NCBI GenBank assembly: GCA_900318295.1
Contig: ONKC01000003.1
Coordinates: 10,155-74,154 of the forward strand
Source of the DNA: an uncultured Eubacteriales bacterium
GTDB taxonomy: Bacteria > Bacillota > Clostridia > Lachnospirales > Lachnospiraceae
DNA length: 64,000 bases
Direction of reading: 5' to 3'
The translations under genes and the position numbers were made by a program. This document shows, piece after piece, positions 7,157 to 30,418 of the stretch. The notes under the pieces were generated by a model. That model made no database searches and had not been told where the DNA came from. It saw only the letters and a list, made by a program, of their open reading frames with translations. Every line of letters starts with the position of its first letter. Within the stretch, counting starts at the first letter, position 1.

Positions 7157-8626
7157 TCATTCATCCATCTCGCTCGCCTTTTGCAGCGCTACTATTACTG
7201 CTTTTGCTTTATTTAAGCTTTCCACGTATTCGGTCTCCGGTACGCTGTCTGCGACTATACCGGCACCGCTTCTGACAAATACCTTGCCATTTTTCTTATA
7301 TGCTATGCGGATCGCGATACATGTGTCTATGTTGCCGGTAAAGTCGATGTAGCCGATCGCCCCGCCGTAGATTCCACGTTTATTGTTCTCGAGTTCTCCG
7401 ATGATCTGACATGCGCGAATCTTCGGTGCTCCGGAAAGAGTCCCGGCAGGCAGTATAGCCTCTATGGCTGAAAGCGCATCCTTGTCATCTGCTATCTCGC
7501 CGCGAACAGTCGAGCCGATATGCATGATGTGTGAGTAACGCTGCACCTCTCTGAGAGTCTCCACCTCTACGGTTCCAAACTTCGATACTCTTCCGAGGTC
7601 GTTGCGTCCGAGATCGACAAGCATGTTGTGCTCGGCGAGCTCTTTTTCATCCTTTAAAAGCTCATCTTCCAGAGCCTTGTCTTGTTCATCGGTCAGACCC
7701 CTTGGTCGTGATCCCGCAAGAGGGAATGTATGTAGTATACCATTTTCAAGCTTTACCAGTGTTTCCGGTGAAGCGCCTGCAACCTCGACGTCCGTTCCGG
7801 AAAAATAAAACATATAAGGCGACGGATTGATGGTGCGAAGCATCCTATATGTATTTAACAGGCTACCTTCAAAAGGAGCGGAGAGTCGGTTGGAAAGGAC
7901 GACCTGGAAGATGTCTCCCTCGCGGATGTATCTCTTTCCTTTTTCGACCATCTCACAGTATTCTTCTTCGGAAAACAGGGCGTCGATCTTGCCTGTGATT
8001 CGTCCGGAACAGTCCTGTTTTTTCTTGCCGTTTTTCAAAAGATGCTTCATTTGATTCAGCTCGACGATCGCTTTGTTATATGATGTCTCGATATCTTCAA
8101 GCTTTATATTTACTATGAGGACTATCTTTTGTTTTACATGATCAAAAGCGATGACTTTGTCAAAGAGCATCAGGTCGACATCCTTGAAAGCCTCCTCATC
8201 CTCTACGTCCACTCGTATGGTGGGCTCTGAATATCCGAGATAGTCAAACGCAAAATAGCCTACCAGACCTCCGGTAAAGGGAGGAAGCTCGGGTATGCGA
8301 GGTGAGCGGTATTTTTTTAAGATGTCACGAAGAAAAGAAGACGGATCATCTGTGTCGATATCTATCAGATCTCCCGCCTGAAGATGTCCGTCGATACAGG
8401 TGATATCAAGCTTGGGATCATATCCCATAAAGGTATAGCGACCCCAGTGCTCCTGTGCCATGGCGGATTCAAGCATAAAGCAATGAACCGAGATATTTTG
8501 AAGAATACGCATAGCCTCTATCGGTGTGATAAAGTCCGACAGAATCTCCATGCTTATAGGTACGATGTCGTATTCATTTTTTGAAGCATAGTCTTTGACC
8601 TGCTCCAGTGACGGAAAAACGTTCAT
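7157..8626 (-). CDS. trpE: Anthranilate synthase component I
   Basis: Trp-feedback motifs 'MLES' and 'NPSPYM'. 'PLAGSRPRG' is TrpE-type rather than PabB 'PIKGT'. Also 'EHNMLVDLGRND' and 'GTLSGAPK'. Confidence 0.9.
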   Translation of the reverse strand: MNVFPSLEQVKDYASKNEYDIVPISMEILSDFITPIEAMRILQNISVHCFMLESAMAQEHWGRYTFMGYDPKLDITCIDGHLQAGDLIDIDTDDPSSFLRDILKKYRSPRIPELPPFTGGLVGYFAFDYLGYSEPTIRVDVEDEEAFKDVDLMLFDKVIAFDHVKQKIVLIVNIKLEDIETSYNKAIVELNQMKHLLKNGKKKQDCSGRITGKIDALFSEEEYCEMVEKGKRYIREGDIFQVVLSNRLSAPFEGSLLNTYRMLRTINPSPYMFYFSGTDVEVAGASPETLVKLENGILHTFPLAGSRPRGLTDEQDKALEDELLKDEKELAEHNMLVDLGRNDLGRVSKFGTVEVETLREVQRYSHIMHIGSTVRGEIADDKDALSAIEAILPAGTLSGAPKIRACQIIGELENNKRGIYGGAIGYIDFTGNIDTCIAIRIAYKKNGKVFVRSGAGIVADSVPETEYVESLNKAKAVIVALQKASEMDE

Positions 8627-8662
8627 GATGACTGTGTAGCCTCCCGTGTAAATTTTTGTAAA

Positions 8663-8691
8663 AGTATATCATATAAATAGGAAAAAGGCAA
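8663..8691 (-). promoter_or_regulatory. SigA-type promoter for trpEG
   Basis: Minus strand TTGCCT-N17-TATACT, about 35 nt upstream of the trpE ATG. Confidence 0.6.
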
Positions 8692-8721
8692 GAGTCTACG
8701 CCATCTTTTTAAAAAAATCAC

Positions 8722-8750
8722 TTGACACTCACCTATACATGTGATATGAT
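8722..8750 (+). promoter_or_regulatory. SigA promoter of purF
   Basis: TTGACA-N17-(TG)TATGAT. Confidence 0.85.
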
Positions 8751-8760
8751 ACATAGCGTT

Positions 8761-8806
8761 GAGGCAAAGGCGTCTCGGAGAAATCCGGGGCGCCTTTTAC
8801 TATTTT
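8761..8806 (+). ncRNA. Leader: ANTAR-type hairpin overlapping an intrinsic terminator (copy 1)
   Basis: GAGGC-AAAGGC-GTCTC hairpin is mutually exclusive with the 14-bp stem AAAGGCGTCTCGGA-gaaa-TCCGGGGCGCCTTT plus T-tract. Confidence 0.8.
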
Positions 8807-8816
8807 GGAGGTATCT

Positions 8817-10310
8817 ATGCATTCCATTCATGAAGAATGCGGTGTCTTCGGAGTTTATACAGATAAGCCTTATGCAGTGGCAAAGGATGTGTACTACGGT
8901 CTGTATTCACTTCAACATCGCGGGCAGGAAAGCTGTGGTATCGTTGTCGGCGACGACGGATTATTTTTCTCACATAAGGATATAGGTGAGGTTCACACCG
9001 TATTTGACGGAGAGATACTTGATAAGCTCCCCACGGGGACGATGGGCATAGGGCATGTCAGGTATTCGACGACAGGTGGGGACGGGAGAAATAACTGTCA
9101 GCCGATGGAGGTAAACCACCAGAAGGGGAGAATGGCGCTCGCTCACAACGGAAACATAAGTAATGCTTACGATCTTCGAAGTAAGCTCGAGCTTTCCGGA
9201 GCTATCTTTCACTCGACATCTGATACTGAGATCATCGCGTATCTGGTGACCAGAGAAAGGCTTACTCATCCGTCTATCGAAGAAGCGGTGATGGCGACCA
9301 TGCCTTATTTAGAGGGAGCATACTCACTTGTTTTGATGTCCGCGACCAAGCTTATCGCAGCTAGGGATCCTCATGGATTCAGACCTCTTTGCTATGGAAA
9401 AAAAGCAGACGGTCACTACATCGTGGCATCCGAGAGCTGTGCTTTAGAGGCGGTCGGAGCTGAGTTTATCAGAGATCTGATGCCGGGCGAGGTTCTGGTC
9501 TTCGGTCAGTCTGATGAAAAGGCTTTTTCTTCGGCACCTGTTCGCGCGGGAGTGACGGTAAAGAAGGAAGCGCCGGGAGTGATAAGCTACTCAAATCATG
9601 TAGAAAAAAAGAAGAAAAAGACATGTATTTTTGAGTACATATACTTCGCAAGACCTGACTCTGTTATCGATGGTGTATCAGTTCACGAGGCCAGGATAAG
9701 AGCCGGAAGGATCCTCGCAAGAGAGGATGATAAGGGTATCGCTGATGTGGTAGTGGGTGTGCCTGACTCAGGTCTTGATGCCGCTTTGGGGTATGCTTTG
9801 GAATCAGGGATACCATACGGTATAGGATTGATCAAAAATAAGTATATAGGAAGGACCTTTATCTCTCCGACGCAGGAGGAGAGAGTAAATCAGGTTCGTA
9901 TAAAGCTCAATCCTATCAGATCTACTGTAGAAGGAAAGAGGATAGTCCTTATAGATGACTCGATCGTGCGTGGCACGACGAGCGGGCATATCGTAAAACT
10001 CCTTCGCGATGCAGGCGCGAAGGAGATACATATGCGAATAAGTGCGCCACCGTTTTTACATCCGTGCTACTACGGTACGGATATAGATTCGGAGGAAAAT
10101 CTCATCGCCTGTCATCATAGTGTGGAGGAGATCGCAGGGATGATCGGTGCCGATTCTTTGAGTTATTTACCGGTAGGATCGCTGCATGAATTGATAAAAA
10201 GTAACGACTTTTGTAACGCGTGCTTTACAGGCGACTATCCGACGGAAGTGCCCGAAAATACTGAGAAAAATCGATTTGAGCAACCTCTGTCCAGGAGGAA
10301 TAATAACTAA
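8817..10310 (+). CDS. purF: Amidophosphoribosyltransferase
   Basis: Short propeptide then 'ECGVFG', 'QHRGQES', 'GHVRYST', 'HNGN', PRPP-binding 'LIDDSIVRGTT', Fe-S Cys residues (TCIF, PCYY, CNAC). ATG 8817 follows GGAGG. Confidence 0.93.
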   Translation: MHSIHEECGVFGVYTDKPYAVAKDVYYGLYSLQHRGQESCGIVVGDDGLFFSHKDIGEVHTVFDGEILDKLPTGTMGIGHVRYSTTGGDGRNNCQPMEVNHQKGRMALAHNGNISNAYDLRSKLELSGAIFHSTSDTEIIAYLVTRERLTHPSIEEAVMATMPYLEGAYSLVLMSATKLIAARDPHGFRPLCYGKKADGHYIVASESCALEAVGAEFIRDLMPGEVLVFGQSDEKAFSSAPVRAGVTVKKEAPGVISYSNHVEKKKKKTCIFEYIYFARPDSVIDGVSVHEARIRAGRILAREDDKGIADVVVGVPDSGLDAALGYALESGIPYGIGLIKNKYIGRTFISPTQEERVNQVRIKLNPIRSTVEGKRIVLIDDSIVRGTTSGHIVKLLRDAGAKEIHMRISAPPFLHPCYYGTDIDSEENLIACHHSVEEIAGMIGADSLSYLPVGSLHELIKSNDFCNACFTGDYPTEVPENTEKNRFEQPLSRRNNN

Positions 10311-10349
10311 AGAGATTCTTGATAATATTTAACAAGTGAAAGAAAATAG

Positions 10350-10378
10350 TTGACATTATTATTCATTTGTGTTATGAT
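10350..10378 (+). promoter_or_regulatory. SigA promoter of amt-glnK
   Basis: TTGACA-N17-(TG)TATGAT. Confidence 0.85.
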
Positions 10379-10388
10379 ACGTTTTGTT

Positions 10389-10434
10389 GAGGCAAGGGCG
10401 TCTCGGTTTTGTAACCGGGACGCCCTTTGTTTTT
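10389..10434 (+). ncRNA. Leader: ANTAR-type hairpin overlapping an intrinsic terminator (copy 2)
   Basis: GAGGC-AAGGGC-GTCTC. Terminator AAGGGCGTCTCGGTT-ttgt-AACCGGGACGCCCTT followed by TGTTTTT. Confidence 0.8.
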
Positions 10435-10462
10435 ATAAAAAATAGAAATGGAGGATAGGTTT

Positions 10463-12229
10463 ATGGAAGAAGTATTGGAGCTGATGGACGGGAAACTATT
10501 TGCAGTATGGTTCCTCATCGGTGCTGCTCTCGTCTTCTGGATGCAGGCGGGATTTGCGATGGTGGAGTCAGGATTTGCCAGGGCAAAAAATGCCGGCAAT
10601 ATCCTCATGAAGAACCTTATGGATTTTTGTATCGGGTGTGTGGTTTTTATCCTGATCGGTTTCGGTCTCCTTTTGGGAGAAGACATGGTGGGACTTATCG
10701 GAAAGCCCGGGCTTGATATTTTTACAGCGTATGCGGATTTTGATTGGTCAAACTTCGTGTTCAACCTTGTGTTCTGCGCGACTACAGCGACCATCGTATC
10801 CGGAGCTATGGCAGAGCGTACAAAGTTTTTGAGCTACTGCGTATACTCCGCTGTCATCTCGGCTTTGATCTATCCGATCGAGGCTCACTGGATCTGGGGA
10901 GGCGGCTGGCTTGCTCAGATGGGATTCCATGATTTTGCAGGGTCATGTGCGATCCATATGGTGGGTGGTATCGCAGCTTTAGTCGGAGCGATCATGGTCG
11001 GACCGCGTATCGGAAAGTTTGAGAGAGATAAGTCGGGAAAGGTTATCAAGGTAAATGCCTTCCCGGGACATAACCTTGTTATCGGAGCTTTGGGTGTGTT
11101 CATCCTGTGGCTCGGCTGGTATGGATTCAACGGTGCAGCTTGTACTACTGTTGAGCAGCTTGCATCTGTATTTGTTACGACTACCATCGCGCCTTCTGTT
11201 GCGACTGTGGTATGTATGGTCTTTACCTGGATCAGATACGGTAAGCCGGATGTGTCGATGTGTCTGAACGCATCTCTGGCAGGACTTGTAGCTATCACCG
11301 CTCCATGTGATGTGACTGATGCATCGGGTGCTATCGCTATCGGAGCTATCTCAGGACTTTTAGTGATCTTCGGAGTATGGCTTCTTGATTACAAGCTTCA
11401 TGTAGATGATCCGGTAGGTGCCGTAGCAGTTCATATGATGAACGGTATCTGGGGAACTATCGCAACCGGACTTTTTGCTACATCAAGCGCACCGGGCTTT
11501 GAGCTTGCAGGTATCAAGGAAGGTCTTTTCTACGGAGGAGGCTTTGATCAGCTCGGTATCCAGTTGGTTGGATTTGCGGCAGTAGCTGCCTGGGCAGCGG
11601 TCGGTATGCTTATCGTATTTGCGATCATCAAGGCTATCTTCGGACTTAGAGTAAGTGAGGAAGAGGAGCTCGAAGGACTCGATCTCACCGAGCATGGTTT
11701 GGCAAGTGCATATTCAGGCTTTTCTATCATGGATGTATCAACAGGTGCTATGTCAGCAAACGAGAACACAAACCTCGGTGTGGCTGCATATGAGGAAGCA
11801 AGTGAGGCGATGAGAAACGCCGCAGTTCCGGTAGAGAATGTAGCCAAAGAGCTCGAGGGAACTATACCTGATTCAGGTATCTACAAGGTTGTCATCATCA
11901 CCAAGCTGTCACGGTATGATAAGATGAAGAGAGCGCTGAACACTCTCGGTGTGACAGGTATCACGGTAACACAGGTCAGCGGTTGCGGTATCCAAAAAGG
12001 TGCCGGCGAGATGTACCGTGGAGTCGAGATGGACATGACACTTTTACCAAAGATCAAACTGGAGGTAGTAGTCAGCGGTATCCCTGTTGACAGCGTCATC
12101 GAGACCGCAAAGAAAACTCTTTACACCGGTAAGATCGGTGACGGAAAGATCTTTGTATATCCTGTAAACAGAGTCGTAAAGATCAGAACCGGAGAGGAAG
12201 ATTATGCTGCACTTCAGGATGTAGAATAA
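10463..12229 (+). CDS. amt: Ammonium transporter fused to a C-terminal PII (GlnK-like) domain
   Basis: Amt motifs 'MQAGFAMVESG', 'HDFAGS', 'DDPVGAVAVH' (twin His). PII motifs 'EMYRG', 'LLPKIK', 'TGKIGDGKIF', 'RTGE'. Start at ATG 10463 after GGAGG. Confidence 0.93.
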   Translation: MEEVLELMDGKLFAVWFLIGAALVFWMQAGFAMVESGFARAKNAGNILMKNLMDFCIGCVVFILIGFGLLLGEDMVGLIGKPGLDIFTAYADFDWSNFVFNLVFCATTATIVSGAMAERTKFLSYCVYSAVISALIYPIEAHWIWGGGWLAQMGFHDFAGSCAIHMVGGIAALVGAIMVGPRIGKFERDKSGKVIKVNAFPGHNLVIGALGVFILWLGWYGFNGAACTTVEQLASVFVTTTIAPSVATVVCMVFTWIRYGKPDVSMCLNASLAGLVAITAPCDVTDASGAIAIGAISGLLVIFGVWLLDYKLHVDDPVGAVAVHMMNGIWGTIATGLFATSSAPGFELAGIKEGLFYGGGFDQLGIQLVGFAAVAAWAAVGMLIVFAIIKAIFGLRVSEEEELEGLDLTEHGLASAYSGFSIMDVSTGAMSANENTNLGVAAYEEASEAMRNAAVPVENVAKELEGTIPDSGIYKVVIITKLSRYDKMKRALNTLGVTGITVTQVSGCGIQKGAGEMYRGVEMDMTLLPKIKLEVVVSGIPVDSVIETAKKTLYTGKIGDGKIFVYPVNRVVKIRTGEEDYAALQDVE

Positions 12230-12260
12230 TATGCGCATATGTTTGCCCAACATATGATAT

Positions 12261-12298
12261 AAAAAAAGGGAGCACCGACCAAAACGGTGTTCCCTTTT
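12261..12298. terminator. Bidirectional intrinsic terminator
   Basis: AAAGGGAGCACCG-accaaaa-CGGTGTTCCCTTT flanked by A- and T-runs. Confidence 0.85.
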
Positions 12299-12313
12299 GA
12301 CACACTACTCATA

Positions 12314-13564
12314 TCAGATACTTGTTTTTGCCTTTGAAAGCATCTCCATAAACTTAGGCGCCTTACCATAATGAAGGACTCCGGCACGATATATCCTCGC
12401 AGAAAGGATACCGATACCGATGGTTGATGCGATAAGTATGATCACCGATATAACTATCTCAAACCAAGCTATATTTCCCATTACAACTCGTGTGAACATA
12501 GCCATCGGAGATGTAAACGGGACATAAGATGCAACGACCATGATAGGAGAATTAACATCTCCGTTCATTCCGAATATAACGATCATAAATGCGATAACAA
12601 AGATCATCGTAACAGGTGTCTGAAGTGTGTTTATGTCCTCTACTTTTGTTGCCATGGAGCCTATCGCACCGAACATCATAGCATAAAGCATAAATCCCAA
12701 AATGAAGAATAACAGCAAATAGAATATCATCTCGGTCGGGATATTGAATATGGATCTGACGATCGGATTGTCGGTAAAGTAGTCACTGTTTATATTGTAG
12801 CATAAAACTGCAGTTCCGAATACCAGGATAAGCTGACTCATTCCGGCAACGCAAGCAGCAAGGATCTTTCCAAACATCAAAGCTGCCGGTCTCGCCGACG
12901 TGATAAGTACCTCCATAGCACGTGAACTTTTTTCGCTGGCAACATTTGTAGCGACCATCTGTCCGTATAGAAGTATGATCATATACAGTGCGAATATCAT
13001 GATATAAGTGTAAAAATAATTCTGCGACTGATCATTTCCTAAAACCTCGGCAGTGCCCTCGACAGTGATGTCGGATGCTTTTTTTAGCTCATCTGAGTTC
13101 ACGCCGGACTGCTTCATCAAAGTGTAATAATTCAGTCTTTCCATGGCGGCATCAGATGGCCCCTGCTTATCGGAATAGATGTTTAATGTCTCTACATAAT
13201 AAGTGTAGCTTTTCAGATCATGAATTACATACGCGTATGCATAGTCACCCGACATGATCTTTGTTTTGACGTTCTCAAGATCGGACTCTGCCACAAGCTC
13301 TTTTCCGTCGCTTTTAGCGATCTCTTCGAAGGCTTGCATTGCCAGATCCTTATCTACATCTCCTTCGACCAGGATAGCGACAGCGCTTTTGCTTTGAGCA
13401 TCTGTTTCGGTACCTTTCTCATCTGAGGAGAAGGACTGAAGTATGCGCGGTAAAAATAACGCGACAGCTATGACAACTACCAAAAAGATAGTTACTCCCA
13501 CGAAGGCTTTGTTTTTAAGATGGGCTCCGAGCTCAAAGCCGAATATAGTCTTAAACTGTTTCAT
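12314..13564 (-). CDS. ABC-2 permease (NatB/YhaP-like)
   Basis: 'VASEKSSRAMEVLITS...LMFGK' signature, one N-terminal TM, an extracytoplasmic domain and C-terminal TMs. Confidence 0.85.
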   Translation of the reverse strand: MKQFKTIFGFELGAHLKNKAFVGVTIFLVVVIAVALFLPRILQSFSSDEKGTETDAQSKSAVAILVEGDVDKDLAMQAFEEIAKSDGKELVAESDLENVKTKIMSGDYAYAYVIHDLKSYTYYVETLNIYSDKQGPSDAAMERLNYYTLMKQSGVNSDELKKASDITVEGTAEVLGNDQSQNYFYTYIMIFALYMIILLYGQMVATNVASEKSSRAMEVLITSARPAALMFGKILAACVAGMSQLILVFGTAVLCYNINSDYFTDNPIVRSIFNIPTEMIFYLLLFFILGFMLYAMMFGAIGSMATKVEDINTLQTPVTMIFVIAFMIVIFGMNGDVNSPIMVVASYVPFTSPMAMFTRVVMGNIAWFEIVISVIILIASTIGIGILSARIYRAGVLHYGKAPKFMEMLSKAKTSI

Positions 13565-14462
13565 CTTCAGTATTCACCTCACTTCCGGTATACTCTACAA
13601 ATATATCGTTCATCGACGGTTCATAAACTCTGATCTCATCGATCTCATACTCAGATGCGATCTTTTGCATGATCTGTTTTTTATTGTCAGGACTTGACAT
13701 TTTTAATATAAGAGAACCGTCTTCTTGCTTTTGACAGGCGTCGCCGTAGGCAGACATGATACTGTCAGCATTCTCGCTTTTTATGACAAGTTTGTCTCTG
13801 GTGTAGCTTCTTTTTATCTCGCGGATGTCACCGGAGAGAACTATATTTCCCTGATTTAAGATGGCTATGTTGTCGCAGAACTCCTCAACATAGTTCATCT
13901 GATGACTGGAGAAAAGAACGATCTTTCCTTCTTCAATCTGACTTTTAACCACGTCCTCAAGTATCATGGCGTTTACCGGATCAAGTCCCGAAAAAGGCTC
14001 GTCGAGAACAACTATATCAGGATTGTGGATAACAGCGGTGATCAGCTGGATCTTTTGCTGATTTCCTTTTGACAGGGTATCGAGACGAGCGTTTCTGTGC
14101 TCAAACATTCCGAGACGTCCGAGCCATTTGTCTACGCCTTTTTCAGCGTCAGCCCTGCTCATACCTTTAAGTCTTGCAAGGTAGACAAGCTGATCGAAGA
14201 TCTTTTTCTTCGGATATAGGCCTCTCTCTTCCGGCAGATATCCTTTACTTACTTTTTCATGGTCGATAGGTACTCCGTCGAGAAGAATCTCACCCGAGTC
14301 AGCACCAAACACATCCATAAGAATACGGATAGTCGTGGTTTTACCCGCTCCGTTTCTTCCCAAAAGCCCGAGTGCCTGACCGCTTTTTACGGACAGATTC
14401 ACGTCCTTTAGCACGTGCTTTTGACCGAAGCTTTTGTTGATGTTTTTCAATTCAAGCTGCAT
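13551..14462 (-). CDS. ABC ATP-binding protein (NatA/YhaQ-like)
   Basis: Walker A 'GRNGAGKTT', signature 'LSKGNQQK', Walker B 'VVLDEPFSGLDP'. Confidence 0.92.
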   Translation of the reverse strand: MQLELKNINKSFGQKHVLKDVNLSVKSGQALGLLGRNGAGKTTTIRILMDVFGADSGEILLDGVPIDHEKVSKGYLPEERGLYPKKKIFDQLVYLARLKGMSRADAEKGVDKWLGRLGMFEHRNARLDTLSKGNQQKIQLITAVIHNPDIVVLDEPFSGLDPVNAMILEDVVKSQIEEGKIVLFSSHQMNYVEEFCDNIAILNQGNIVLSGDIREIKRSYTRDKLVIKSENADSIMSAYGDACQKQEDGSLILKMSSPDNKKQIMQKIASEYEIDEIRVYEPSMNDIFVEYTGSEVNTEDETV

Positions 14463-14504
14463 TGCATATAACCTCCTTGGCTAATGTGTATTACCATCCT
14501 GCTG

Positions 14505-14533
14505 ATTATACTAAAAATTAGGAATTTCGTCAA
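14505..14533 (-). promoter_or_regulatory. SigA promoter of the ABC operon
   Basis: Minus strand TTGACG-N17-TATAAT, back-to-back with the radical SAM promoter. Confidence 0.75.
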
Positions 14534-14543
14534 ATTTTTTTGC

Positions 14544-14572
14544 TTGACAAGATAATCTTAATGATGTATAAA
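14544..14572 (+). promoter_or_regulatory. SigA promoter of the radical SAM gene
   Basis: TTGACA-N17-TATAAA. Confidence 0.7.
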
Positions 14573-14673
14573 GTGAGATAAAGTGGGTGGAGATGTCGAA
14601 GATATGCCTATGCGTAGGGCATATCAGTATAGTCAGACATCGCAAAAAGCAATAATAGGAGGGAGATAAAACT

Positions 14674-15768
14674 ATGGAAAAAGACTTTGACATCCAGGAG
14701 TACATGACAAAGGGTGTGGAAAGGGTTGTCTCGGATGCCCTTCGTGCGACCTTGAAGAATCCACGGGAAAGTGCATTTATGCTCCGATTTGCCTCGGCAA
14801 GTAAGTCTGCATCGAAGAAAAGAAAGGAAGCAAAAAAGCACGGTGAGCATGTACCGCCGTTTTTGATCGCGAGTATCACCAGCGAGTGTAATCTGCACTG
14901 TGCGGGGTGTTATTCACGTTGTACGGAAGCGACTACTGATGATGATCCGACAGACCAGCTTACTTCTAAAGAGTGGTCGGATATTTTTGATGAGGCTTCG
15001 GATATGGGTATAAGCTTTATCCTTTTAGCAGGCGGCGAGCCTTTACTTCGCCGCGATGTGATCGAGGCTGCTTCAAAAAGACAGGATATACTTTTCCCGG
15101 TGTTTTCAAACGGAACTTATATAGACGATAAGTACGAAAAGATGTTTGATAAGCACAGAAACCTCGTGCCGATACTCAGTATCGAGGGAGACAAAGATAC
15201 TACTGATGATCGTCGTGGTGATGGGATATATGATATCCTCATCAAAAATATGAACAGGTTTAAAAAGGACGGCCTGATCTTCGGAGTCTCCGTGACGGTG
15301 ACTACGCAGAACTTAGAAGAGGTCATTTCGGACGGATTTTTAGAGGAGCTTGCGGATAAAGGCTGTAAGGCTGTGATCTATGTTGAGTATGTTCCGATCT
15401 CGGATGAGGCAAAGGAACTTTCGATATCAGATGAGCAAAGAGAGTATCTGAAAGATCGGATGGGTAAGCTCAGAGAGGATATCCCGGAGATGGTATTTAT
15501 AGCTTTTCCGGGTGATGAAAAAAGCTCCGGTGGTTGTGTTGCGGCCGGGCGTGGGTTTTTCCATATAAACTCACACGGTGATGCGGAGCCCTGTCCTTTT
15601 TCTCCGTACTCTGATATAAATGTCAGAGAGACATCTTTGCGCGAGTCCGTGAACTCGACATTTTTCAAAAAACTCCGCGACGGTAATCTCCTTGTAGATG
15701 ACCATGAGGGCGGGTGTGTGCTTTATGAAAAACGTGAGCAGGTGGAAGCTGTGCTATCGGGAGTGTGA
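14674..15768 (+). CDS. Radical SAM protein with SPASM/twitch-like C-terminus, substrate unknown
   Basis: CxxxCxxC 'CNLHCAGC', 'GGEPLL', C-terminal 'GCVAAGRGFFHINSHGDAEPCPF...GGC'. Confidence 0.88.
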   Translation: MEKDFDIQEYMTKGVERVVSDALRATLKNPRESAFMLRFASASKSASKKRKEAKKHGEHVPPFLIASITSECNLHCAGCYSRCTEATTDDDPTDQLTSKEWSDIFDEASDMGISFILLAGGEPLLRRDVIEAASKRQDILFPVFSNGTYIDDKYEKMFDKHRNLVPILSIEGDKDTTDDRRGDGIYDILIKNMNRFKKDGLIFGVSVTVTTQNLEEVISDGFLEELADKGCKAVIYVEYVPISDEAKELSISDEQREYLKDRMGKLREDIPEMVFIAFPGDEKSSGGCVAAGRGFFHINSHGDAEPCPFSPYSDINVRETSLRESVNSTFFKKLRDGNLLVDDHEGGCVLYEKREQVEAVLSGV

Positions 15769-15800
15769 ATAAAAGTATAAATGCTTTCTGAAATTTTTTC

Positions 15801-15829
15801 TTGACAAGTTTCTAAAAATATGATATGAT
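15801..15829 (+). promoter_or_regulatory. SigA promoter of asnB-glnN-gltBD
   Basis: TTGACA-N17-(TG)TATGAT. Confidence 0.85.
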
Positions 15830-15839
15830 GCGTTGCAGT

Positions 15840-15888
15840 GAGGCAAAGGCGTCTCAGAGGAAACTCTGGGACGTCTTTGTCTTTCTTT
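15840..15888 (+). ncRNA. Leader: ANTAR-type hairpin overlapping an intrinsic terminator (copy 3)
   Basis: GAGGC-AAAGGC-GTCTC. Terminator AAAGGCGTCTCAGAG-gaaa-CTCTGGGACGTCTTT followed by GTCTTTCTTT. Confidence 0.8.
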
Positions 15889-15907
15889 GGTTTAGGAGGA
15901 CAAAAAA

Positions 15908-17608
15908 ATGTGCGCGATACTGACTTATGCAAGGCCTGATGTGTCCGAAGGCTTCTTTTCGGAGATGCTTATGAAGACGCAGTCGAGAGGACCGGACATG
16001 TCCGATCACATCAAGGTAAAAAGAGGCTGGATCGGATTCAATCGTTTGTCGATCATGGGACCGGGAGCTACGGGCATGCAGCCCTTCACACATCGAGGAA
16101 ACGCTGTAGTGTGCAACGGTGAGGTGTACGGGTTCGGACCTTTGAAGGAGTATCTGTCATCGATCGGATATCCTTTTGAGAGCGGAAGCGATTGCGAACT
16201 TCTGATGCCGTTATACGAGAAGCTCGGTGTGGCGATGTTTAATCTTTTGGATGCGGAGTTCGCCTGTGTGATATACGACGGTGAAAAGGACGAGTTTATC
16301 GCAGCCCGCGATCCGATAGGCATCAGACCTTTGTACTACGGTTATGATGATGAAGGATATATACTGTTTGCGTCGGAACCGAAAAACATAGTCGGTGTTG
16401 CCAAGGAAATAAAACCGTTTCCACCGGGACATTTTTATAAAAACGGAGAGTTCACAAGCTACCGTGATATGACCACGGGCGGTGTATATGCGAAGGCAGG
16501 CTGGAATCCCGGAAAGGCCGGACAGGGAAGACACTTAAGCGGAGTCGGAAACGCCCACAGTCGTGCTACTGCAGGAAGCATGACTTTGTCAAACGGACTC
16601 GGGATAATGGATGAAGGAGTGGATGCAATATGTGAAGGCATCCATGACAGACTGATAGGTGGTATAAAAAAACGACTTACCGCGGACCAGCCGATAGGGT
16701 TTTTGTTATCGGGAGGACTTGATTCATCGCTTGTATGCGGTGTGGCGGCAAAGCTACTGCCGGAGCCGATACCGACATTTGCGATAGGAATGGATATCGA
16801 TGCGATCGATCTGAAGTACGCAAGGCAGGTTGCGGACTACATACACTCGGATCATCACGAGGTGATCATAACGGCAGAGGATGTCATAGAGGCTGTGGAG
16901 CCGGTGATACAGGCGCTCGCCACCTACGACATCACGACGATCAGAGCGTCGATCGGTATGTATCTTCTCTGCAAGTGGATCAGGGAGAATACGGATATAA
17001 AGGTTTTGCTCACCGGGGAAATATCGGATGAGCTTTTCGGATATAAGTACACGGACTTCGCACCGAGTGCGGAGGAGTTTCAGGAGGAGTCTAAAAAAAG
17101 GATCAGGGAGCTTCACATGTATGATGTGCTCAGAGCCGATCGCTGTATCAGCGTAAACTCTTTGGAAGCCAGAGTGCCGTTTGGAGATCTCGATTTCGTC
17201 GACTATGTGATGGCGATAGATCCCGAGAAAAAAATGAATACCTACGGCATCGGAAAGTATCTTCTAAGACATGCTTTTGAAAAGGATGAGTTCATCCCGC
17301 ATGAGATTCTGATGAGAGAAAAAGCTGCCTTTTCCGATGCGGTCGGTCACAGCCTGAGAGATGATCTGATCGATCTGGCAGAAAAGACCTACACTGATGA
17401 AGCTTATGAGGAGGGTATAAAAAAATATACCCACGCTAAGCCTTTTACAAAAGAGTCACTTTTATATCGCGACATTTTTGAAAAGTATTATCCCGGGCAG
17501 TCGCATATGGTAACGGATTTCTGGATGCCGAATAAGTCCTGGGATGGTTGCAACGTTAATGATCCGTCTGCCCGAGTTCTATCGAACTACGGAGCATCAG
17601 GAGAATAA
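15908..17608 (+). CDS. asnB: Asparagine synthase (glutamine-hydrolysing)
   Basis: Ntn Cys2 'MCAI', 'RGPD', 'CNGEVY', 'RDPIGIRPLYYG', PP-loop 'LSGGLDSS', 'SLEARVPF'. Confidence 0.93.
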   Translation: MCAILTYARPDVSEGFFSEMLMKTQSRGPDMSDHIKVKRGWIGFNRLSIMGPGATGMQPFTHRGNAVVCNGEVYGFGPLKEYLSSIGYPFESGSDCELLMPLYEKLGVAMFNLLDAEFACVIYDGEKDEFIAARDPIGIRPLYYGYDDEGYILFASEPKNIVGVAKEIKPFPPGHFYKNGEFTSYRDMTTGGVYAKAGWNPGKAGQGRHLSGVGNAHSRATAGSMTLSNGLGIMDEGVDAICEGIHDRLIGGIKKRLTADQPIGFLLSGGLDSSLVCGVAAKLLPEPIPTFAIGMDIDAIDLKYARQVADYIHSDHHEVIITAEDVIEAVEPVIQALATYDITTIRASIGMYLLCKWIRENTDIKVLLTGEISDELFGYKYTDFAPSAEEFQEESKKRIRELHMYDVLRADRCISVNSLEARVPFGDLDFVDYVMAIDPEKKMNTYGIGKYLLRHAFEKDEFIPHEILMREKAAFSDAVGHSLRDDLIDLAEKTYTDEAYEEGIKKYTHAKPFTKESLLYRDIFEKYYPGQSHMVTDFWMPNKSWDGCNVNDPSARVLSNYGASGE

Positions 17609-17683
17609 CAGAAGCGCGAGCGCTATGGTAGGGGTCCGACCGCGCTTGCACAGGAAACTTTAGTAGAATAGGAGGATAGAATC

Positions 17684-19792
17684 ATGATTGAAGCTAAAAA
17701 GTTACCCGAGGAATACGGAAGTTTGGTTTTCGGCGATAAGGTGATGCGCGAGCGTCTGCCGAAGGACGTTTATAAGGCGGTCCACAAGACGATCGTCAGC
17801 GGGACTCACCTTGAGCTCGATGTGGCAAACGCAGTTGCGGTTGCGATGAAGGAGTGGGCGATCGAAAACGGTGCTACTCATTATACACATTGGTTCCAGC
17901 CGATGACAGGACTTACCGCGGAGAAGCACGACAGCTTTATCTCACCGGAAGGTGACGGAAGTGTGATCATGGAGTTTTCAGGAAAGGAGCTTGTAAAGGG
18001 CGAGCCTGATGCATCGAGCTTTCCTTCAGGAGGACTTCGTGCAACCTTCGAGGCAAGAGGATATACGGCATGGGATCCGTCATCGCCGGCATTTATCAAG
18101 GACGGGTCGCTTTACATCCCGACTGCCTTTTGCTCATACGGCGGAGAGGCACTTGATAAAAAGACACCGCTTCTTCGTTCGATGGAGGCTCTGTCAAAGG
18201 AAGCAGTAAAAATGATGAAGCTGCTCGGATATGAAGATGTAAACAGAGTGAATACAACAATAGGGTCTGAGCAGGAGTATTTTTTAATAGATAAAGATGA
18301 CTATATGAGAAGAAAGGATCTTCTTTTTACCGGACGTACACTTATCGGCGCTCCGGCGACCAAAGGTCAGGAGATGGAGGATCACTACTTCGGTGTGATC
18401 AAGCCTAAGGTTTCAGCCTTCATGCATGATCTGGATGAGGAGCTTTGGAAGCTCGGTATCCCGGCTAAAACAAAGCACAACGAGGTCGCTCCGTCTCAGC
18501 ACGAGATGGCACCGGTATTTGAGACAGCAAACGTCGCAGTCGATCACAACCAGCTGACGATGGAGGTCATGAAAAAAGTTGCCGACAAGCACGGTTATGC
18601 ATGCCTCCTTCATGAGAAGCCTTTCGAGGGTATCAACGGATCAGGTAAGCACAACAACTGGTCAATCTGCACCGATACGGGGATCAACCTTTTGGATCCG
18701 GGCAAGCATCCGGATGAGAACATCCCGTTCCTCATCACACTGATCGCAGTCATCGCGGCAGTAGATGAGTACGCACCGCTTCTTCGTCTGTCCGTGGCAA
18801 GTGCAGGAAACGACCACAGACTCGGAGCAAACGAGGCACCGCCGGCAGTTATCTCAATCTTTGTCGGAGATGAGTTGACCAAGGTACTTGACAGCATCAG
18901 AAGCGGAAAGAGCTTCAAGGGTGCAGGAAAAGAAAAAATGGAGATGGGTGCACAGGTACTTCCGCACATCACCAAAGATAATACAGATCGTAACCGTACA
19001 TCACCGTTCGCATTTACCGGAAACAAGTTCGAGTTCCGTATGCCGGGTTCATCGGTATCTGTTGCAAACGCAAACATCGTTTTGAATACAGCAGTGGCAG
19101 AGGTCATCTCACGCATGACCGAAAAGCTTTCAGGGCTCGCCGGAGACGAACTTCACGACGCACTGACCGCCCTTTTGAAAGAGGAGCTTATAGCGCATGA
19201 AAAAGTACTGTTTAACGGAAACGGTTACACTGATGAGTGGATCGCTGAAGCAGAAAAGAGAGGTCTCCCGAACCTGAAAGCTCTTCCGGATGCTATGCCT
19301 CATTGGATTGGAGAGCCGTCTGTAGAGCTTTTCACCAAGCATCAGATCTTTACAAAAGAGGAGCTTGATTCGAGATATGAGATCCTGCTTGAGAACTATT
19401 CGAAGTCGATAAATATCGAAGCACTCACGATGCAGGAGATGGTTCGAAAAGATCTGACGAGCGGCATCATCGCATATGAACAGGATCTGACCAAGGAGAT
19501 ACTTCAGAAGGAACAGGCACTTCCGGGAGCAAAGGCAGCGCTTGAAGGAAACATCTTAAAGACACTTGATGAGGCATCCTCACAGATCGCCGTAAAGCTT
19601 GAGACACTTAAAAAGGATACGCTTGAAGCAGAGAGTATCGAAGATCCTCTGGCACAGGCTGATTTCTATGAGAAAAAAGTGCTTGCGGATATGGATGAAT
19701 TGAGAGTATATACCGATCAGGCAGAGGCTTTGATCCCGGATGAATACCTGACCTATCCGACATACGGACAGATGCTGTTTTCACTTAGATAA
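17684..19792 (+). CDS. glnN: Glutamine synthetase type III
   Basis: 702 aa. 'ATHYTHWFQP', 'GEPDASSFPSGG', 'FEARGYTAWD', 'HNEVAPSQHE', 'NGSGKHNNWS', 'DRNRTSPFAFTGNKFEFR'. Confidence 0.95.
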   Translation: MIEAKKLPEEYGSLVFGDKVMRERLPKDVYKAVHKTIVSGTHLELDVANAVAVAMKEWAIENGATHYTHWFQPMTGLTAEKHDSFISPEGDGSVIMEFSGKELVKGEPDASSFPSGGLRATFEARGYTAWDPSSPAFIKDGSLYIPTAFCSYGGEALDKKTPLLRSMEALSKEAVKMMKLLGYEDVNRVNTTIGSEQEYFLIDKDDYMRRKDLLFTGRTLIGAPATKGQEMEDHYFGVIKPKVSAFMHDLDEELWKLGIPAKTKHNEVAPSQHEMAPVFETANVAVDHNQLTMEVMKKVADKHGYACLLHEKPFEGINGSGKHNNWSICTDTGINLLDPGKHPDENIPFLITLIAVIAAVDEYAPLLRLSVASAGNDHRLGANEAPPAVISIFVGDELTKVLDSIRSGKSFKGAGKEKMEMGAQVLPHITKDNTDRNRTSPFAFTGNKFEFRMPGSSVSVANANIVLNTAVAEVISRMTEKLSGLAGDELHDALTALLKEELIAHEKVLFNGNGYTDEWIAEAEKRGLPNLKALPDAMPHWIGEPSVELFTKHQIFTKEELDSRYEILLENYSKSINIEALTMQEMVRKDLTSGIIAYEQDLTKEILQKEQALPGAKAALEGNILKTLDEASSQIAVKLETLKKDTLEAESIEDPLAQADFYEKKVLADMDELRVYTDQAEALIPDEYLTYPTYGQMLFSLR

Positions 19793-19808
19793 AAATCAAA
19801 CTAAAATG

Positions 19809-19846
19809 CATGGAAGGGAACCGACCTCCTTAGGTTTCCTTCCATG
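19809..19846 (+). other. Intercistronic 14-bp hairpin between glnN and gltB (no U-tract)
   Basis: CATGGAAGGGAACC / GGTTTCCTTCCATG. Confidence 0.6.
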
Positions 19847-19872
19847 AATAATCTAAAAAAATGGTGATATAA

Positions 19873-22800
19873 ATGGATAATAATAGTGATAATAATAACG
19901 TTAAAAATAATCCGCTTGAAAATGAAAACTGGTGGAAAAATGAACACGATGCCTGCGGTATCGGAGCTGTTATAAATATAGACGGAAAAAAGGATCATAA
20001 AGTCCTTGATGATGCTTTAAGTATCGTAGAAAAGCTCGAGCACCGCGCAGGTAAGGATGCCACGGGTAAGGTCGGAGACGGTGTAGGAATTCTGACTCAG
20101 ATATCGCATCCATTTTTCAAAAAACAAGGTAAAAAGCTTGGTATAGATCTGGGCGATGAGGGCGACTACGGTGTCGGAATGTTTTTCTTTCCGCAGGATG
20201 CCCTGAAAAGAAAGTTCGCGATGAGGATGCTCGAGGTTATCGCTGAAAAAGAAGGAGTTGAGTTCCTCGGCTGGAGAGATGTTGAAACTCATCCGGAGCT
20301 TCTCGGTCAGGTCGCTGTCGACTGCATGCCCTATATTAGCCAGTGCTTTTTGAAAAGACCTGATGATGTTGAAAAGGGAATAGATTTTGACAGAAAGCTA
20401 TACTGCCTTAGAAAGGAGTATGAACAGAGCTCCGAGGATACATATATCTGCTCACTTTCCTCTCGTACCATCGTGTACAAGGGAATGTTTTTAGTTGGAC
20501 AGCTCAGAAACTTTTATGAGGACTTACTTTCTAAGGATTATAAAACGGCGATCGCTTTGGTACACTCCAGATTTTCTACCAATACGACGCCATCCTGGCA
20601 GCGTGCTCATCCGTATCGAATGATCGCGCACAATGGTGAGATCAACACCATCCGCGGTAACGCCGATCGTATGCTTGCCAGAGAAGAGACCATGAAGACC
20701 GATCTAAGTAAGGTCTATCCTGTTATCTCATCATCGGGTTCGGATTCTGCCATGCTCGATAACACCTTGGAATTTTTATACATGAACGGTATGGAGCTTC
20801 CGCTGGCGATGATGATCACCGTGCCCGAGCCCTGGAAGCATGATGATGCGATGGGCAAGGAGCGCAAGGATTTTTATCACTATTATGCGACAATGATGGA
20901 GCCGTGGGACGGCCCTGCAGCTATCCTTTTTACGGACGGAGAACTTTTTGGAGCAACTTTGGATCGTAACGGACTCAGACCGTCACGCTACTACGTCACA
21001 AAGGATAAAAGACTCATCCTCTCATCGGAGGTGGGTGTTCTTGATATACCCGAGGATACGATCGAAAAGAAATCGAGATTGTCACCGGGAAGGATGCTTG
21101 TAGTCGATACAAAGCAGGGAAGGATCCTCTCGGATGCGGAGTGCAAGGAGCGTTATGCGACTGCACATCCGTACGGCGAGTGGCTTGATCGTCACCTCCT
21201 TCACTTAGATCATTTAAATATCCCAAATAAAAAAATACCGACACACGAGCAGAGTGTGAGAGACCGACTTTACAAGGTATTTGGTTATGCATATGAGGAT
21301 ATAAAAAATCAGATACTTCCGATGGCGACTGATGGAGTAGAGCCGACGGTATCGATGGGTGCGGATGTCCCGCTCGCGATGCTTTCATCACATCATCAGC
21401 CACTGTTTTGCTACTTTAAGCAACTGTTTGCACAGGTAACAAATCCGCCGATCGACTCACTCAGAGAAAAGATCGTCACCGACACGACCGTATATATCGG
21501 TTCGGACGGAGATCTGTTGCAGGCAAAGGGTGAAAACTGTCGAGTGCTCGAGGTAAATAATCCGATACTTACCGGAGTCGATCTGATGAAGATCGAAGCG
21601 CTCGATACGGAGGGGTTCCATACGGCTAAGGTATCACTTTTATACTATAAAAATACCCCGATAGAAAGAGCTTTGGATCAGTTAAATATTGCCGTAGACA
21701 GAGCGATTTCAGAGGGTGCAAATATCATTACTTTATCGGATAGAGGTGTAGATGAAAACCACATGCCTATCCCGTCGCTGCTCGCAGTATCATCTGTTGA
21801 ACAGCACCTGGTAAGAACGAAAAAAAGAACCGCAGTTTCACTCATACTTGAAAGCGGTGAGCCCAGAGATGTGCATCAGATAGCATGTCTTTTGGGTTAT
21901 GGTGTGCGTGCGATACATCCTTATCTTGCACATGAATGTATCGCTGAGATGATCGATATCGGAATGCTTGATAAGGATTATCACACCGCGATCGCTGACT
22001 ATAATAAAGCACTTTTAAACGGTGTTGTAAAGATCGCTGCAAAGATGGGAATATCCACTCTGCAGTCATATCAGTCTGCACGTATTTTTGAAGCAATCGG
22101 TCTTTCAAAGGAGGTTATCGATACCTACTTTACAGGTACAGTCAGCAGAGCAGGCGGTATCGGTATCAAAGAGATCGGTGAGGATGTCGAGCTTCGTCAT
22201 AATAAAGCTTTTGATCCTCTGGGACTTCCTGTGGATGCTACGCTTGATTCGATCGGATTCCACGGCCTTCGAAGCGGAGATGATAAAGAGGACCATATGT
22301 ATACTCCGAAGACCATAGTGACTCTCCAGCGTGCGGTAAGAGAGGGTGACTATGAACTCTTTAAAGAGTATGCAAAAATGGTGGATGATGAGAACAGGCC
22401 GCATACCCTGCGCGCATTGCTTGAGTTTATCCCGGCGAAAAAGCCGGTTCCTTTGGATGAAGTGGAGAGCGAGGATGATATAGTAAAACGTTTCCAGACA
22501 GGGGCCATGTCATACGGTTCTTTGTCAAAGGAGGCGCACGAGACATTGGCGACCGCCATGAACAGACTTGGCGGAAGGTCAAACACGGGAGAGGGTGGTG
22601 AGGCCACCGACCGCTTCGGTACCGAGAGAAACTCTGCAGTAAAGCAGGTTGCGTCGGGACGTTTTGGTGTGACGAGCGGTTATCTTCTCAGTGCGAAGGA
22701 GATCCAGATAAAAATGGCCCAGGGCGCGAAGCCCGGTGAGGGTGGACACCTTCCCGGAAAGAATGTATATCCCTGGGTGGCAAAGACCAGATTTTCGACA

Positions 22801-24417: not shown

Positions 24418-24539
24418 CAGTTTCCGTTCGGAGGTCCGCTTGCGCCATTTCCGAGCGTAGCGGTGCACGGCTTGAGAATACCAAGCCTGCGCACCGACGC
24501 TCGCAAAGCCTCCTCACAAAAACTGTCATCAGAAACCTG
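24404..24539. repeat. About 135-bp nested imperfect palindrome (REP/MITE-like) overlapping the gltB stop codon
   Basis: Outer arms CAGGTTCTGACTGACAGTTT / AAACTGTCATCAGAAACCTG. Inner arms GAGCGT..GGTGC..GGCTTG / CAAGCC..GCACC..ACGCTC. Confidence 0.7.
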
Positions 24540-24589
24540 ATATACTGAGATTGAAAACTATATATGTACTTTTTTATAGGAGTGATAAC

Positions 24590-26056: not shown

Positions 26057-26084
26057 TGACATATGTCATCAAGTGGTGTATAAT
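26056..26084 (+). promoter_or_regulatory. Promoter of carAB with a palindrome TGACATATGTCA over the -35
   Basis: GTGACA-N17-TATAAT. Perfect 12-bp palindrome at 26057-26068. Confidence 0.6.
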
Positions 26085-26142
26085 ATTCCGCAGCAAAAGT
26101 CTATGAGCATATTATTTAGATGAAAAACGAGGTGACAGATTC

Positions 26143-27165
26143 ATGAACGAACAAAAAAGAAGACTGATCCTCGAAGACGGGACCGTTTTTATCGGTGAGG
26201 GCTTCGGGGCAGAGTCTGATGCGGTGTGTGAGCTTGTCTTCAACACGTCGATGGTCGGTTATCAGGAGATAGTTTCCGATCCGTCCTATACAGATCAGGC
26301 GGTGGTGATGAGCTATCCTTTGATCGGTAACTACGGGATCACGGATGAGGATTTCGAGAGCAGGATCGTAGCTCCGACCGCATTTATCGTCAGGGATTAT
26401 AATGATCAGCCGTCGAACTTCAGGTACACGAAAACCCTGTCGGAGCTGCTCGCGGATAACGGCATCCCCGGTGTTACAGGGATTGATACGAGGAAGCTGG
26501 TAAGACATATCAGGGATCACGGATCTCAGAGGGTACTTATCACCTCGGATAATATAAGTCCGGAGGAAGGACAAAAAAGGATAGCAGATACGCCTGTACC
26601 ACACGATTCGGTCAGTCGTGTAAGCTGTAAAAAAAGATGGTATGCAAGAACAGCAAATCCGAGATTTAATGTTGTCGCCATCGACTGCGGTATCAAATTA
26701 AATATCGTCCGTATGCTGAACAAATACGGCTGCAACGTAGTTGTAGTACCGTATGACACGGGAAGTGAGAACATCCTTCAGATGCATCCGGACGGTGTTT
26801 TTGTGTCCAACGGTCCCGGTGATCCGGCTGATGTGAGTGTGGTAACAAAGACGATACAAAACCTCATCGGCAAGCTTCCGATATTTGGAATATGCTTAGG
26901 TCATCAGCTTATCGCAAGAGCATACGGAGCGGATACATACAAGTTAAAATTCGGTCACAGGGGAGTAGATGAAAAGACGATTAAAAATGATAAAATAAAG
27001 GTGTCACATATGAACCTTTTGGATAATACAGTCGAAGGTATCGTGTGTCCTTCCGATAAGGTGATGTCGGTGCAGTATCATCCCGAGAGCGCACCGGGAC
27101 CGAAGGACAGCGCGTATCTTTTTGATCAGTTTGTAGCGTTAATGGAGGAAGAAAAAAATGCCTAA
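26143..27165 (+). CDS. carA: Carbamoyl-phosphate synthase small subunit with an in-frame internal deletion
   Basis: 'LEDGTVF', '[10 protein letters not shown]', 'SNGPGDP', 'GICLGHQ', 'QYHPES'. The usual 'NHPV...SQNH' segment is missing after GHRG. Confidence 0.9.
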
Positions 27166-30337: not shown

Positions 30338-30418
30338 GTGAATCAGAGTGATACAGTGTATGGCAAAAGCTGCGTGCAGTCTTGATCCGGGCTGTGATGC
30401 ATGGAAAGGAAGGAAACT

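Follow-up and report, generated by a model that had tools for sequence, protein, structure and literature searches.

The stretch analysed here, a 64-kb window (64,000 nucleotides (nt) of contig ONKC01000003.1 from an uncultured bacterium of the Lachnospiraceae), carries three short leaders in front of nitrogen-assimilation genes, located at 8722-8806, 10350-10437 and 15801-15893. Each of them combines a promoter, a hairpin resembling those bound by proteins of the ANTAR family and an intrinsic terminator. We consider it likely that these leaders are protein-dependent transcription attenuators that are off by default and that use one ANTAR hairpin, equivalent to the second hairpin (P2) of the canonical two-hairpin targets, and can thus be described as "P2-only" attenuators. 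The candidate regulator is an ANTAR protein encoded in the same window.

Matches to the sequence element GAGGCAARGGCGTCTC number exactly three in the window (8761, 10389 and 15840) and lie on the + strand, as do the promoters, hairpins and terminators of the three leaders and the genes behind them with the closing terminator; 0.03 matches were expected by chance, and three matches were reached in none of 100 shuffled sequences. In a scan of positions 8000-26000, the three best σ70-type promoter matches were TTGACA-17-TATGAT sequences with a TG-extended -10 element, found at 8722-8750 (leader 1), 10350-10378 (leader 2) and 15801-15829 (leader 3). All three match 11 of the 12 consensus positions and possess the TG, and their position is kept in relatives. 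The -10 hexamers end at 8750, 10378 and 15829, in each case exactly 10 nt 5' of GAGGC. The three longest terminator-like matches of the same scan (8766-8797, 10394-10427 and 15840-15883) begin in or at the hairpin. Their stems of 14, 15 and 20 pairs are each followed by a T-rich tail, as in intrinsic terminators, giving terminator 1 at 8766-8806 (-24 to -27 kcal/mol), terminator 2 at 10394-10437 (-31.7 kcal/mol, with a T-run) and terminator 3 at 15840-15893 (-35 kcal/mol). Across the three leaders TGAGGCAARGGCGTCTC is constant except at the R position, and the terminator apices vary with compensating changes (CGGA-GAAA-TCCG, CGGTT-TTGT-AACCG and CAGAG-GAAA-CTCTG). An initial annotation of this DNA had reported a 10-nt gap between TATGAT and GAGGC-AARGGC-GTCTC and a near-invariant core accompanied by variable, compensating terminator loops; the gap is present exactly as stated, and both features of the core and loops are seen in the three leaders.

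Hairpin 1 (8759-8778, core 8761-8776) reads TTGAGGC-AAAGGC-GTCTCGG, with a C-G pair closing the loop and then a G.U pair, and is identified by the motif, by stem covariation and by its ANTAR-type loop. Hairpin 2 (GTTGAGGC-AAGGGC-GTCTCGGT, 10386-10407, core 10389-10404) and hairpin 3 (TGAGGC-AAAGGC-GTCTCA, 15839-15856, core 15840-15855) are identified by the motif and by pairing. In these forms the stem extends to 6-8 pairs, and the hairpin would start at about +1 to +3 of a transcript whose start site is predicted from the promoter only. The 5' arm of the terminator is made of the loop and the 3' arm of the hairpin and, in leader 3, of the entire hairpin, and therefore hairpin and terminator are mutually exclusive. 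When growing transcripts were folded, the 5-pair core reached -4.6 kcal/mol and the extended hairpin about -6.5 to -7 kcal/mol, the values for leader 1 being -6.5 to -6.8 kcal/mol. The hairpin was the minimum-energy fold until about 32 nt and the terminator (-24 to -35 kcal/mol) was dominant by 36-40 nt, which makes termination the default state.

Leader 3 also holds an alternative hairpin, TTGC-AGTGAG-GCAA at 15833-15846, in which the A at loop position 1 (A1) and the G at position 4 (G4) are present. It overlaps the main hairpin, and the two cannot form together because they share bases. The string TGCAGTGAGGCA is found again in the orthologous asnB leaders of three related loci (L064, L087 and L100; related loci are given by their L numbers). 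Transcription of this alternative hairpin depends on the exact start site.

The window loops AAAGGC, AAGGGC and AAAGGC are all A1/G4 hexaloops in the sense of Ramesh et al. 2012. The published seed alignment contains nasF P2 (GGAU-AAAGGC-GUCC), eutA P2 (UUAAGC-AAAGGC-GCUUAA) and eutG P2 (GAAGC-AAAGAC-GCUUC), and the loop and C-G closing pair of the window hairpin GAGGC-AAAGGC-GUCUC are the same as those of nasF P2 and eutA P2. By sequence alone, the element also fits the minimal single-hexaloop motif of Walshe et al. 2022. In the crystal structure of the EutV-RNA complex, both ANTAR domains of the dimer grip one hexaloop, and the isolated P1 and P2 hairpins were bound with similar affinity in that study (PMC8934654), so that a single hairpin is enough for ANTAR binding. 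The initial annotation had taken as background that characterised ANTAR targets use two hexaloop hairpins bound by a dimer, a view that is out of date since the same work redefined the single hexaloop as the minimal motif. Binding to one hairpin is therefore expected and not surprising; what stands out is a transcription attenuator with a single hairpin. Of the canonical pair, the upstream P1 is missing, and the retained hairpin corresponds to P2, nested wholly in the 5' arm of the terminator. At gathering thresholds, Rfam returned no match for the whole window. Rfam matches to leader 1 at E-values up to 10 were rejected as chance matches driven by the terminator, and a riboswitch, a T-box and a DNA operator were considered for the leaders and rejected.

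The putative regulator gene (31595-32179) encodes a protein of 194 residues whose homologs, one of them 99% identical, carry the ANTAR domain PF03861 together with the receiver domain PF00072. The family profile matches Rv1626 (3e-19), AmiR (6e-10), EutV (7e-9) and NasR (6e-6). RNA contacts of EutV involve R142, K149, E160 and Y164 (PMC8934654). By our own reading of the profile alignment, the first three correspond to R148, K154 and E165 here, all invariant, and Tyr164, which stacks on G4, aligns with the nearly invariant H169; AmiR likewise has a His at this position. In the receiver, the phospho-acceptor position is occupied by Asn60, nearly invariant in the family, and the acidic pair is replaced by a Ser-Ser conserved in the family. 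The domain is thus a pseudo-receiver, without the Asp and the acidic pair that define a two-component response regulator. A gene for a short glutamine synthetase (GS)-like protein (about 390-407 residues) lies directly 5' of the ANTAR gene in all seven related loci inspected, including L121-L126. By analogy with AmiC-AmiR and NasS-NasT, this GS-like protein would be the signal-sensing partner. Given this analogy and the absence of the phospho-acceptor Asp, the activity of the regulator is probably set by the GS-like protein and not by a kinase. The GS-like gene and the Asn-bearing receiver together suggest a kinase-free sensor-regulator pair comparable to AmiC-AmiR. That a GS-like protein and a pseudo-receiver ANTAR protein are consistently paired points to a nitrogen-sensing input not characterised so far.

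On this basis the leaders could operate as follows. Transcription would begin a few bases 5' of the hairpin, so that no other structure would fold before it. In the default state, the 3' arm of the terminator, made about 8-12 nt later, would displace the hairpin by branch migration from the apex, and polymerase would stop at the T-run. When nitrogen status activates the ANTAR regulator, its dimer would clamp the hexaloop (A1 and G4) and the top of the stem, leaving the clamped loop and 3' arm unable to pair with the 3' arm of the terminator. The short apical helix that remains would not be adjacent to the U-tract, and polymerase would read into purF, amt-PII or asnB-GS-gltBD-carAB-GS-like-ANTAR. 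Since the regulator gene is the last gene of the third operon, and so one of those it would control, the circuit would be positively autoregulated. Within this attenuator model, both the direction in which the leaders respond and the function of the GS-like protein are inferences.

Related sites were collected in two ways. A scan for the exact 16-mer core in 185,579 genomes, one per species, which is incomplete and biased to identical cores, gave at least 120 loci; among the matches listed, most are chance occurrences in coding DNA of high-GC genomes. True leaders with promoter, hairpin and terminator were found in at least 13 loci (at least 15 sites) from rumen Eubacterium sp. metagenome-assembled genomes (MAGs), Lachnospiraceae bacterium P6B14, other Lachnospiraceae and Clostridia MAGs and Ruminococcus albus 8, and leader 1 of strain P6B14 is almost the same as leader 1 of the window. 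Strain P6B14 and R. albus 8 are cultured organisms. The second collection comprised about 100 related loci (1.16 Mb), the sole criterion being a gene for a relative of the ANTAR protein, with 40-71% identity for metagenomes and 46-67% for assemblies, in which 113 unique hairpins of the one-hairpin type were found. In these loci the pairing-free core GCAA.G[GA][CTG]GT occurs 191 times compared to about 54 in shuffled sequences, and core sites with all three flanking pairs number 109 compared to about 2.6 expected. A structural scanner that accepted stems of 4 or more pairs with as many as 2 mismatches was too loose and was rejected for its many false matches; it was then tightened and cross-checked with the pairing-free core count.

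Among 46 distinct hairpins, the closing C-G pair is kept in 46 and the neighbouring pair is G.U in 43 and A-U in the other 3. The next three pairs interchange A-U, G-C and U-A, giving the stem classes GAGGC/GUCUC, AAGGC/GUCUU and UGAGC/GUUCA. The covariation score of this set is 0.615, compared to 0.10-0.18 in slid controls, and was matched in none of 500 shuffles. The loop consensus is A-A-N-G-(G/A)-(C/U), with A1, A2 and G4 in 46/46, but these hairpins were selected for the loop signature. In L121 (3200-3400, minus strand), L138, L174 and L203 the single-hairpin attenuator occurs twice in tandem, both copies having a terminator of their own, and these promoter-distal copies indicate that the one-hairpin unit works away from the promoter. 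The L121 tandem leader sits 5' of type III GS and amt-PII genes. In R. albus 8 (L073, minus strand, 2687 and 2886), two near-identical leaders of the UGAGC-AAUGGC-GUUCA class lie about 200 nt apart, with a TATAAT box 23-25 nt 5' of each copy.

The hairpin-regulator link is a prediction drawn from co-occurrence, the sites being abundant in loci that encode relatives of the regulator. This kind of evidence also leaves room for a true antiterminator hairpin that is stabilised by another factor, such as another RNA-binding protein, the GS-like or a P-II protein, both of which are encoded in the regulon, or a small ligand. We regard this alternative as unlikely. The A1/G4 loop with its C-G closing pair is the exact determinant of ANTAR recognition, and the loci in which the sites abound were picked for nothing but their relatives of the ANTAR protein. 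In Geobacter sulfurreducens, genetic evidence shows that read-through of nif leader terminators carrying the near-identical core CAGGCAANGGCGCC requires the ANTAR regulator GnfR (PMC2995071). As for a ligand, a hairpin of 16-20 nt offers no binding pocket, and no riboswitch family of Rfam matches.

Control by an ANTAR protein could also follow the canonical two-hairpin scheme, either through an upstream start that brings in a P1 or through the apical hairpin of the terminator serving as second site; we find this quite unlikely. The window leaders lack the tandem P1 and P2 with short linker described by Ramesh et al. 2012. No A..G hexaloop hairpin was found in the 40 nt 5' of each window hairpin, and none of the three leaders has a second one that lies entirely 5' of its hairpin or within the 40 nt 3' of it. 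In the related loci, an A..G hexaloop hairpin of at least 3 pairs precedes 7 of the 113 sites within 40 nt (6%), compared to 10% of random 40-nt windows of the same loci, and none of these seven is like the ANTAR consensus; the same test recovered both hairpins in 7 of 9 published seed sequences. Promoters matching at least 10 of 12 positions accompany 48 of 63 scanner matches, and in 41 of these 48 the -10 element ends 6-12 nt 5' of the 5-bp core stem, which means that the transcript would have no space for a hairpin further upstream. With regard to the terminator, the apical loops of the window leaders (GAAA, TTGT, and GAAA or AGAAAT) are not conserved, and the G4 hexaloop is absent from all three apices.

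A dual-hairpin covariance model, rebuilt from 8 published seed sequences and run with filters off, scored the leaders at 8.7, 6.7 and 6.6 bits (E-values of 0.6-2.2 in 18 kb), which is the level of chance, and placed P1 on the -10 box. By contrast, relatives in which two hexaloops are present reached 17.2 bits. The P1 of nasF was misaligned by MAFFT in this seed and kept, with the only effect of making the model more permissive for P1. In Table S2 of Ramesh et al. 2012 there is no Ruminococcus entry, and the matches in Butyrivibrio, Roseburia and Eubacterium eligens precede genes for hypothetical proteins, not nitrogen genes (PMC3369931), a pattern consistent with dual-hairpin models missing one-hairpin sites. 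The initial annotation had found no consistent upstream second hairpin, had suspected that dual-hairpin models could overlook such leaders and had proposed a one-hairpin ANTAR variant. The first point holds in the three leaders and, with partners not above background, in the 113 related sites, and the second agrees with scores that do not rise above noise. The variant itself is supported by the in silico tests, namely the loop match, the regulator, the exclusivity of hairpin and terminator, the lack of an upstream partner and the abutting promoters.

Several observations weigh against the one-hairpin attenuator. Antitermination by EutV depends, in vivo and in vitro, on both hairpins and on the spacing between them (PMC8934654), the NasR leader likewise requires two, and the expectation of Walshe et al. 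was that sites with one hexaloop would occur mainly where no time limit is set by the polymerase (PMC8934654). Here only about 8-12 nt separate the hairpin from the 3' arm of the terminator, and the protein would have to arrive within this interval; in the scheme proposed for EutV, recruitment of the protein by P1 precedes the emergence of P2. We conjecture that a stable 5'-end hairpin, pre-formed and free of competing upstream RNA, may compensate for this short window of time. A second A..G hexaloop lies downstream in 23 of the 113 sites (20%), mostly at the apex of the terminator directly after the first hairpin, so that a two-site mode could exist for the protein family as a whole. These include TGAGC-AAUGGG-GCUCA in L141, L149 and L150 and GGAG-AAAGUU-CUUC in the R. 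albus pyrG leader (L073, 5484), and second hexaloop hairpins also occur 11-17 nt downstream in L121, L125 and L133. The covariation set came from a scanner requiring at least 5 pairs, which inflates the percentage of paired positions for the inner pairs, and the pairing-free core count answers this selection bias only in part. The stretch from the purF stop codon to the promoter of leader 2 (10311-10349) showed no terminator-like site. Polymerases that pass leader 1 could therefore run on into the amt-PII attenuator, a point in favour of the two-hairpin alternative.

The available RNA data are assembled contigs of rumen metatranscriptomes, whose patchy coverage is too sparse to map 5' ends. 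None of these contigs lies over the window promoters, and the most 5' perfect contig begins at 8777, a position compatible with the model and not a start-site map. One low-depth contig of R. albus 8 (L073 5445-5819, from a mixed-culture metatranscriptome) starts with the last base of the -35 box predicted for the pyrG leader, about 30 nt before the expected transcription start. This contig is ambiguous, as it could reflect an upstream start, DNA carry-over or chance. As a separate observation, a second hexaloop at the apex of a terminator constitutes a two-hexaloop geometry unlike the canonical P1-P2 arrangement.

It is very unlikely that the conserved 16-mer is a DNA operator to which a repressor binds, as an imperfect palindrome at +5 to +20. 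Its place directly 3' of the promoter and its dyad symmetry would suit such a role, but the most conserved part is the asymmetric centre AARGGC and not the arms, and the G.U pair, which is a mismatch in terms of DNA symmetry, is kept in 43 of the 46 hairpins. In addition, changes in the arms are compensatory for RNA pairing, the element invariably sits within a terminator and in the orientation of transcription, and promoter-distal tandem copies exist. The least likely alternative is that these are constitutive, unregulated attenuators or hairpins that act on stability, 5'-terminal hairpins being able to stabilise mRNAs, with a coincidental resemblance to ANTAR targets: the 5' arm is invariant whereas the 3' arm allows wobble and mismatch, which indicates sequence-specific recognition beyond pairing, the occurrence is limited to nitrogen-assimilation genes, and core sites with paired flanks are enriched about 40-fold.

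The genes downstream of the one-hairpin attenuators were identified by NCBIfam scans. Behind leader 1 lies purF (8817-10310), encoding amidophosphoribosyltransferase (TIGR01134, 502.6 bits for a cut-off of 350). Leader 2 precedes a gene for an ammonium transporter fused to a P-II domain (10448-12229; TIGR00836, 418.8 bits for a cut-off of 343.3; P-II match at residues 480-589). The operon behind leader 3 comprises asnB, a type III-like glutamine synthetase gene, gltB, gltD, carA and carB (15908-30337), followed by the gene for the short GS-like protein of 395 residues (30401-31588), which scores 260 bits with the GlnA model, below its cut-off of 429, and by the ANTAR gene. The type III-like enzyme has 702 residues, and its counterparts of about 697-698 residues in related loci carry type III GS Pfam domains. 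The intergenic gaps of this third operon are short and none contains a terminator-like site. The operon is closed just 3' of the ANTAR gene by a strong terminator (32168-32198) with a 10-pair stem followed by CCTTTTTTG. A promoter-like match, GTGACA-17-TATAAT, lies within the operon at 26056-26084, just 5' of carA, and carAB may therefore be expressed apart from leader 3. Besides ammonium uptake and the glutamine synthetase-glutamate synthase (GS-GOGAT) pathway, the regulon consists mostly of glutamine-dependent amidotransferases, namely purF, asnB and carAB in the window, and pyrG is among the regulated amidotransferase genes in R. albus 8 (L073 5581-7184) and L121 (10599-12206). This richness in amidotransferases hints at glutamine supply as the signal. 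Other ANTAR systems have regulons of this kind as well.

ANTAR control of nitrogen genes in Clostridia, GS-ANTAR gene pairs and the A1/G4 hexaloop are already known, and so is one hexaloop as the minimal unit of ANTAR binding (PMC8934654). In a literature search that left most subscription journals outside its reach, we found no description of a promoter-proximal, terminator-nested one-hairpin attenuator prevailing across a regulon and a clade. Beyond the window, we see as evenly balanced the broader proposal that the entire regulon of nitrogen-assimilation and glutamine-amidotransferase genes in Clostridia of gut and rumen (Lachnospiraceae, Ruminococcus and relatives) may be controlled by a distinct ANTAR subclass, defined by a single 5'-terminal terminator-nested hexaloop without a recruitment hairpin, a non-phosphorylatable pseudo-receiver ANTAR protein and a GS-like sensor that sets its activity. 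The current model of ANTAR antitermination requires two hairpins with fixed spacing, in which P1 recruits the dimer that then moves to P2. Whether sites with only one hexaloop exist was a question raised with the EutV-RNA structure, and its authors expected them mostly beyond co-transcriptional control (PMC8934654). If true, the proposal would provide a kinase-free one-hairpin nitrogen switch and ANTAR antitermination without a P1-to-P2 hand-over of the EutV type. The window leaders, if they work as proposed, would be natural one-hairpin attenuators that act within about 12 nt of transcription, making the race of the protein directly testable. Because two-hairpin models miss one-hairpin sites, ANTAR regulons in Lachnospiraceae and Ruminococcus are likely under-annotated, and a model of one hairpin plus terminator would allow the nitrogen regulons of many genomes from rumen and human gut to be mapped.

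The leaders of the window share with the EutV-controlled eut leaders of Enterococcus faecalis the A1/G4 hexaloop, the conserved closing pair and the competition with a terminator (PMC3369931, PMC8934654), and the RNA-contact Arg, Lys and Glu of EutV are conserved in the regulator. They differ from them in having no upstream P1 recruitment hairpin and a single hairpin of 6-8 bp at the predicted 5' end of the transcript, wholly in the 5' arm of the terminator. Furthermore, EutV is phosphorylated by EutW, whereas the regulator described here has a pseudo-receiver, and the G4-stacking Tyr164 of EutV is replaced by His. The nasF leader of Klebsiella oxytoca, target of NasR, has a P2 loop (AAAGGC) identical to that of the window and resembles it in the nitrogen-assimilation target and in terminator competition; however, P1, linker and P2 are all needed in nasF, compared to one hairpin here, and NasR senses nitrate via its NIT domain whereas the present system has a receiver-like domain and an adjacent GS-like gene.

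The regulator resembles AmiR in having a His at the position of EutV Tyr164 and, more generally, the AmiC-AmiR (Pseudomonas aeruginosa) and NasS-NasT systems, in which an ANTAR protein with a non-phosphorylated pseudo-receiver is controlled by a partner encoded by the neighbouring gene, as would be the case here. The partner is nevertheless GS-like and not a sensor with the periplasmic-binding-protein fold, and the target has one hairpin instead of two. In the GnfK/GnfR system of G. sulfurreducens (Ueki and Lovley 2010, PMC2995071), the core CAGGCAANGGCGCC is to be compared with GAGGCAARGGCGTC in the window; it also overlaps leader terminators of nitrogen genes and is associated with an ANTAR regulator. 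By contrast with the window, the GnfR element was reported both upstream of and overlapping terminators, the promoters are RpoN-dependent, and GnfR is a true response regulator with a kinase (PMC2995071). The glnA-nitR pair of solventogenic clostridia and the GS-ANTAR pairs of Table S2 in Ramesh et al. 2012 similarly associate a GS-type gene with an adjoining ANTAR response-regulator gene and have nitrogen-assimilation targets in Clostridia, but their published RNA matches were defined with a two-hairpin model. Finally, the ribonucleic antiterminators (RAT) of LicT, SacY and BglG offer a parallel in which one protein-stabilised hairpin overlaps the 5' arm of a terminator, although these proteins have the unrelated CAT-domain fold and recognise the RAT via internal loops in the stem and not via a hexaloop.

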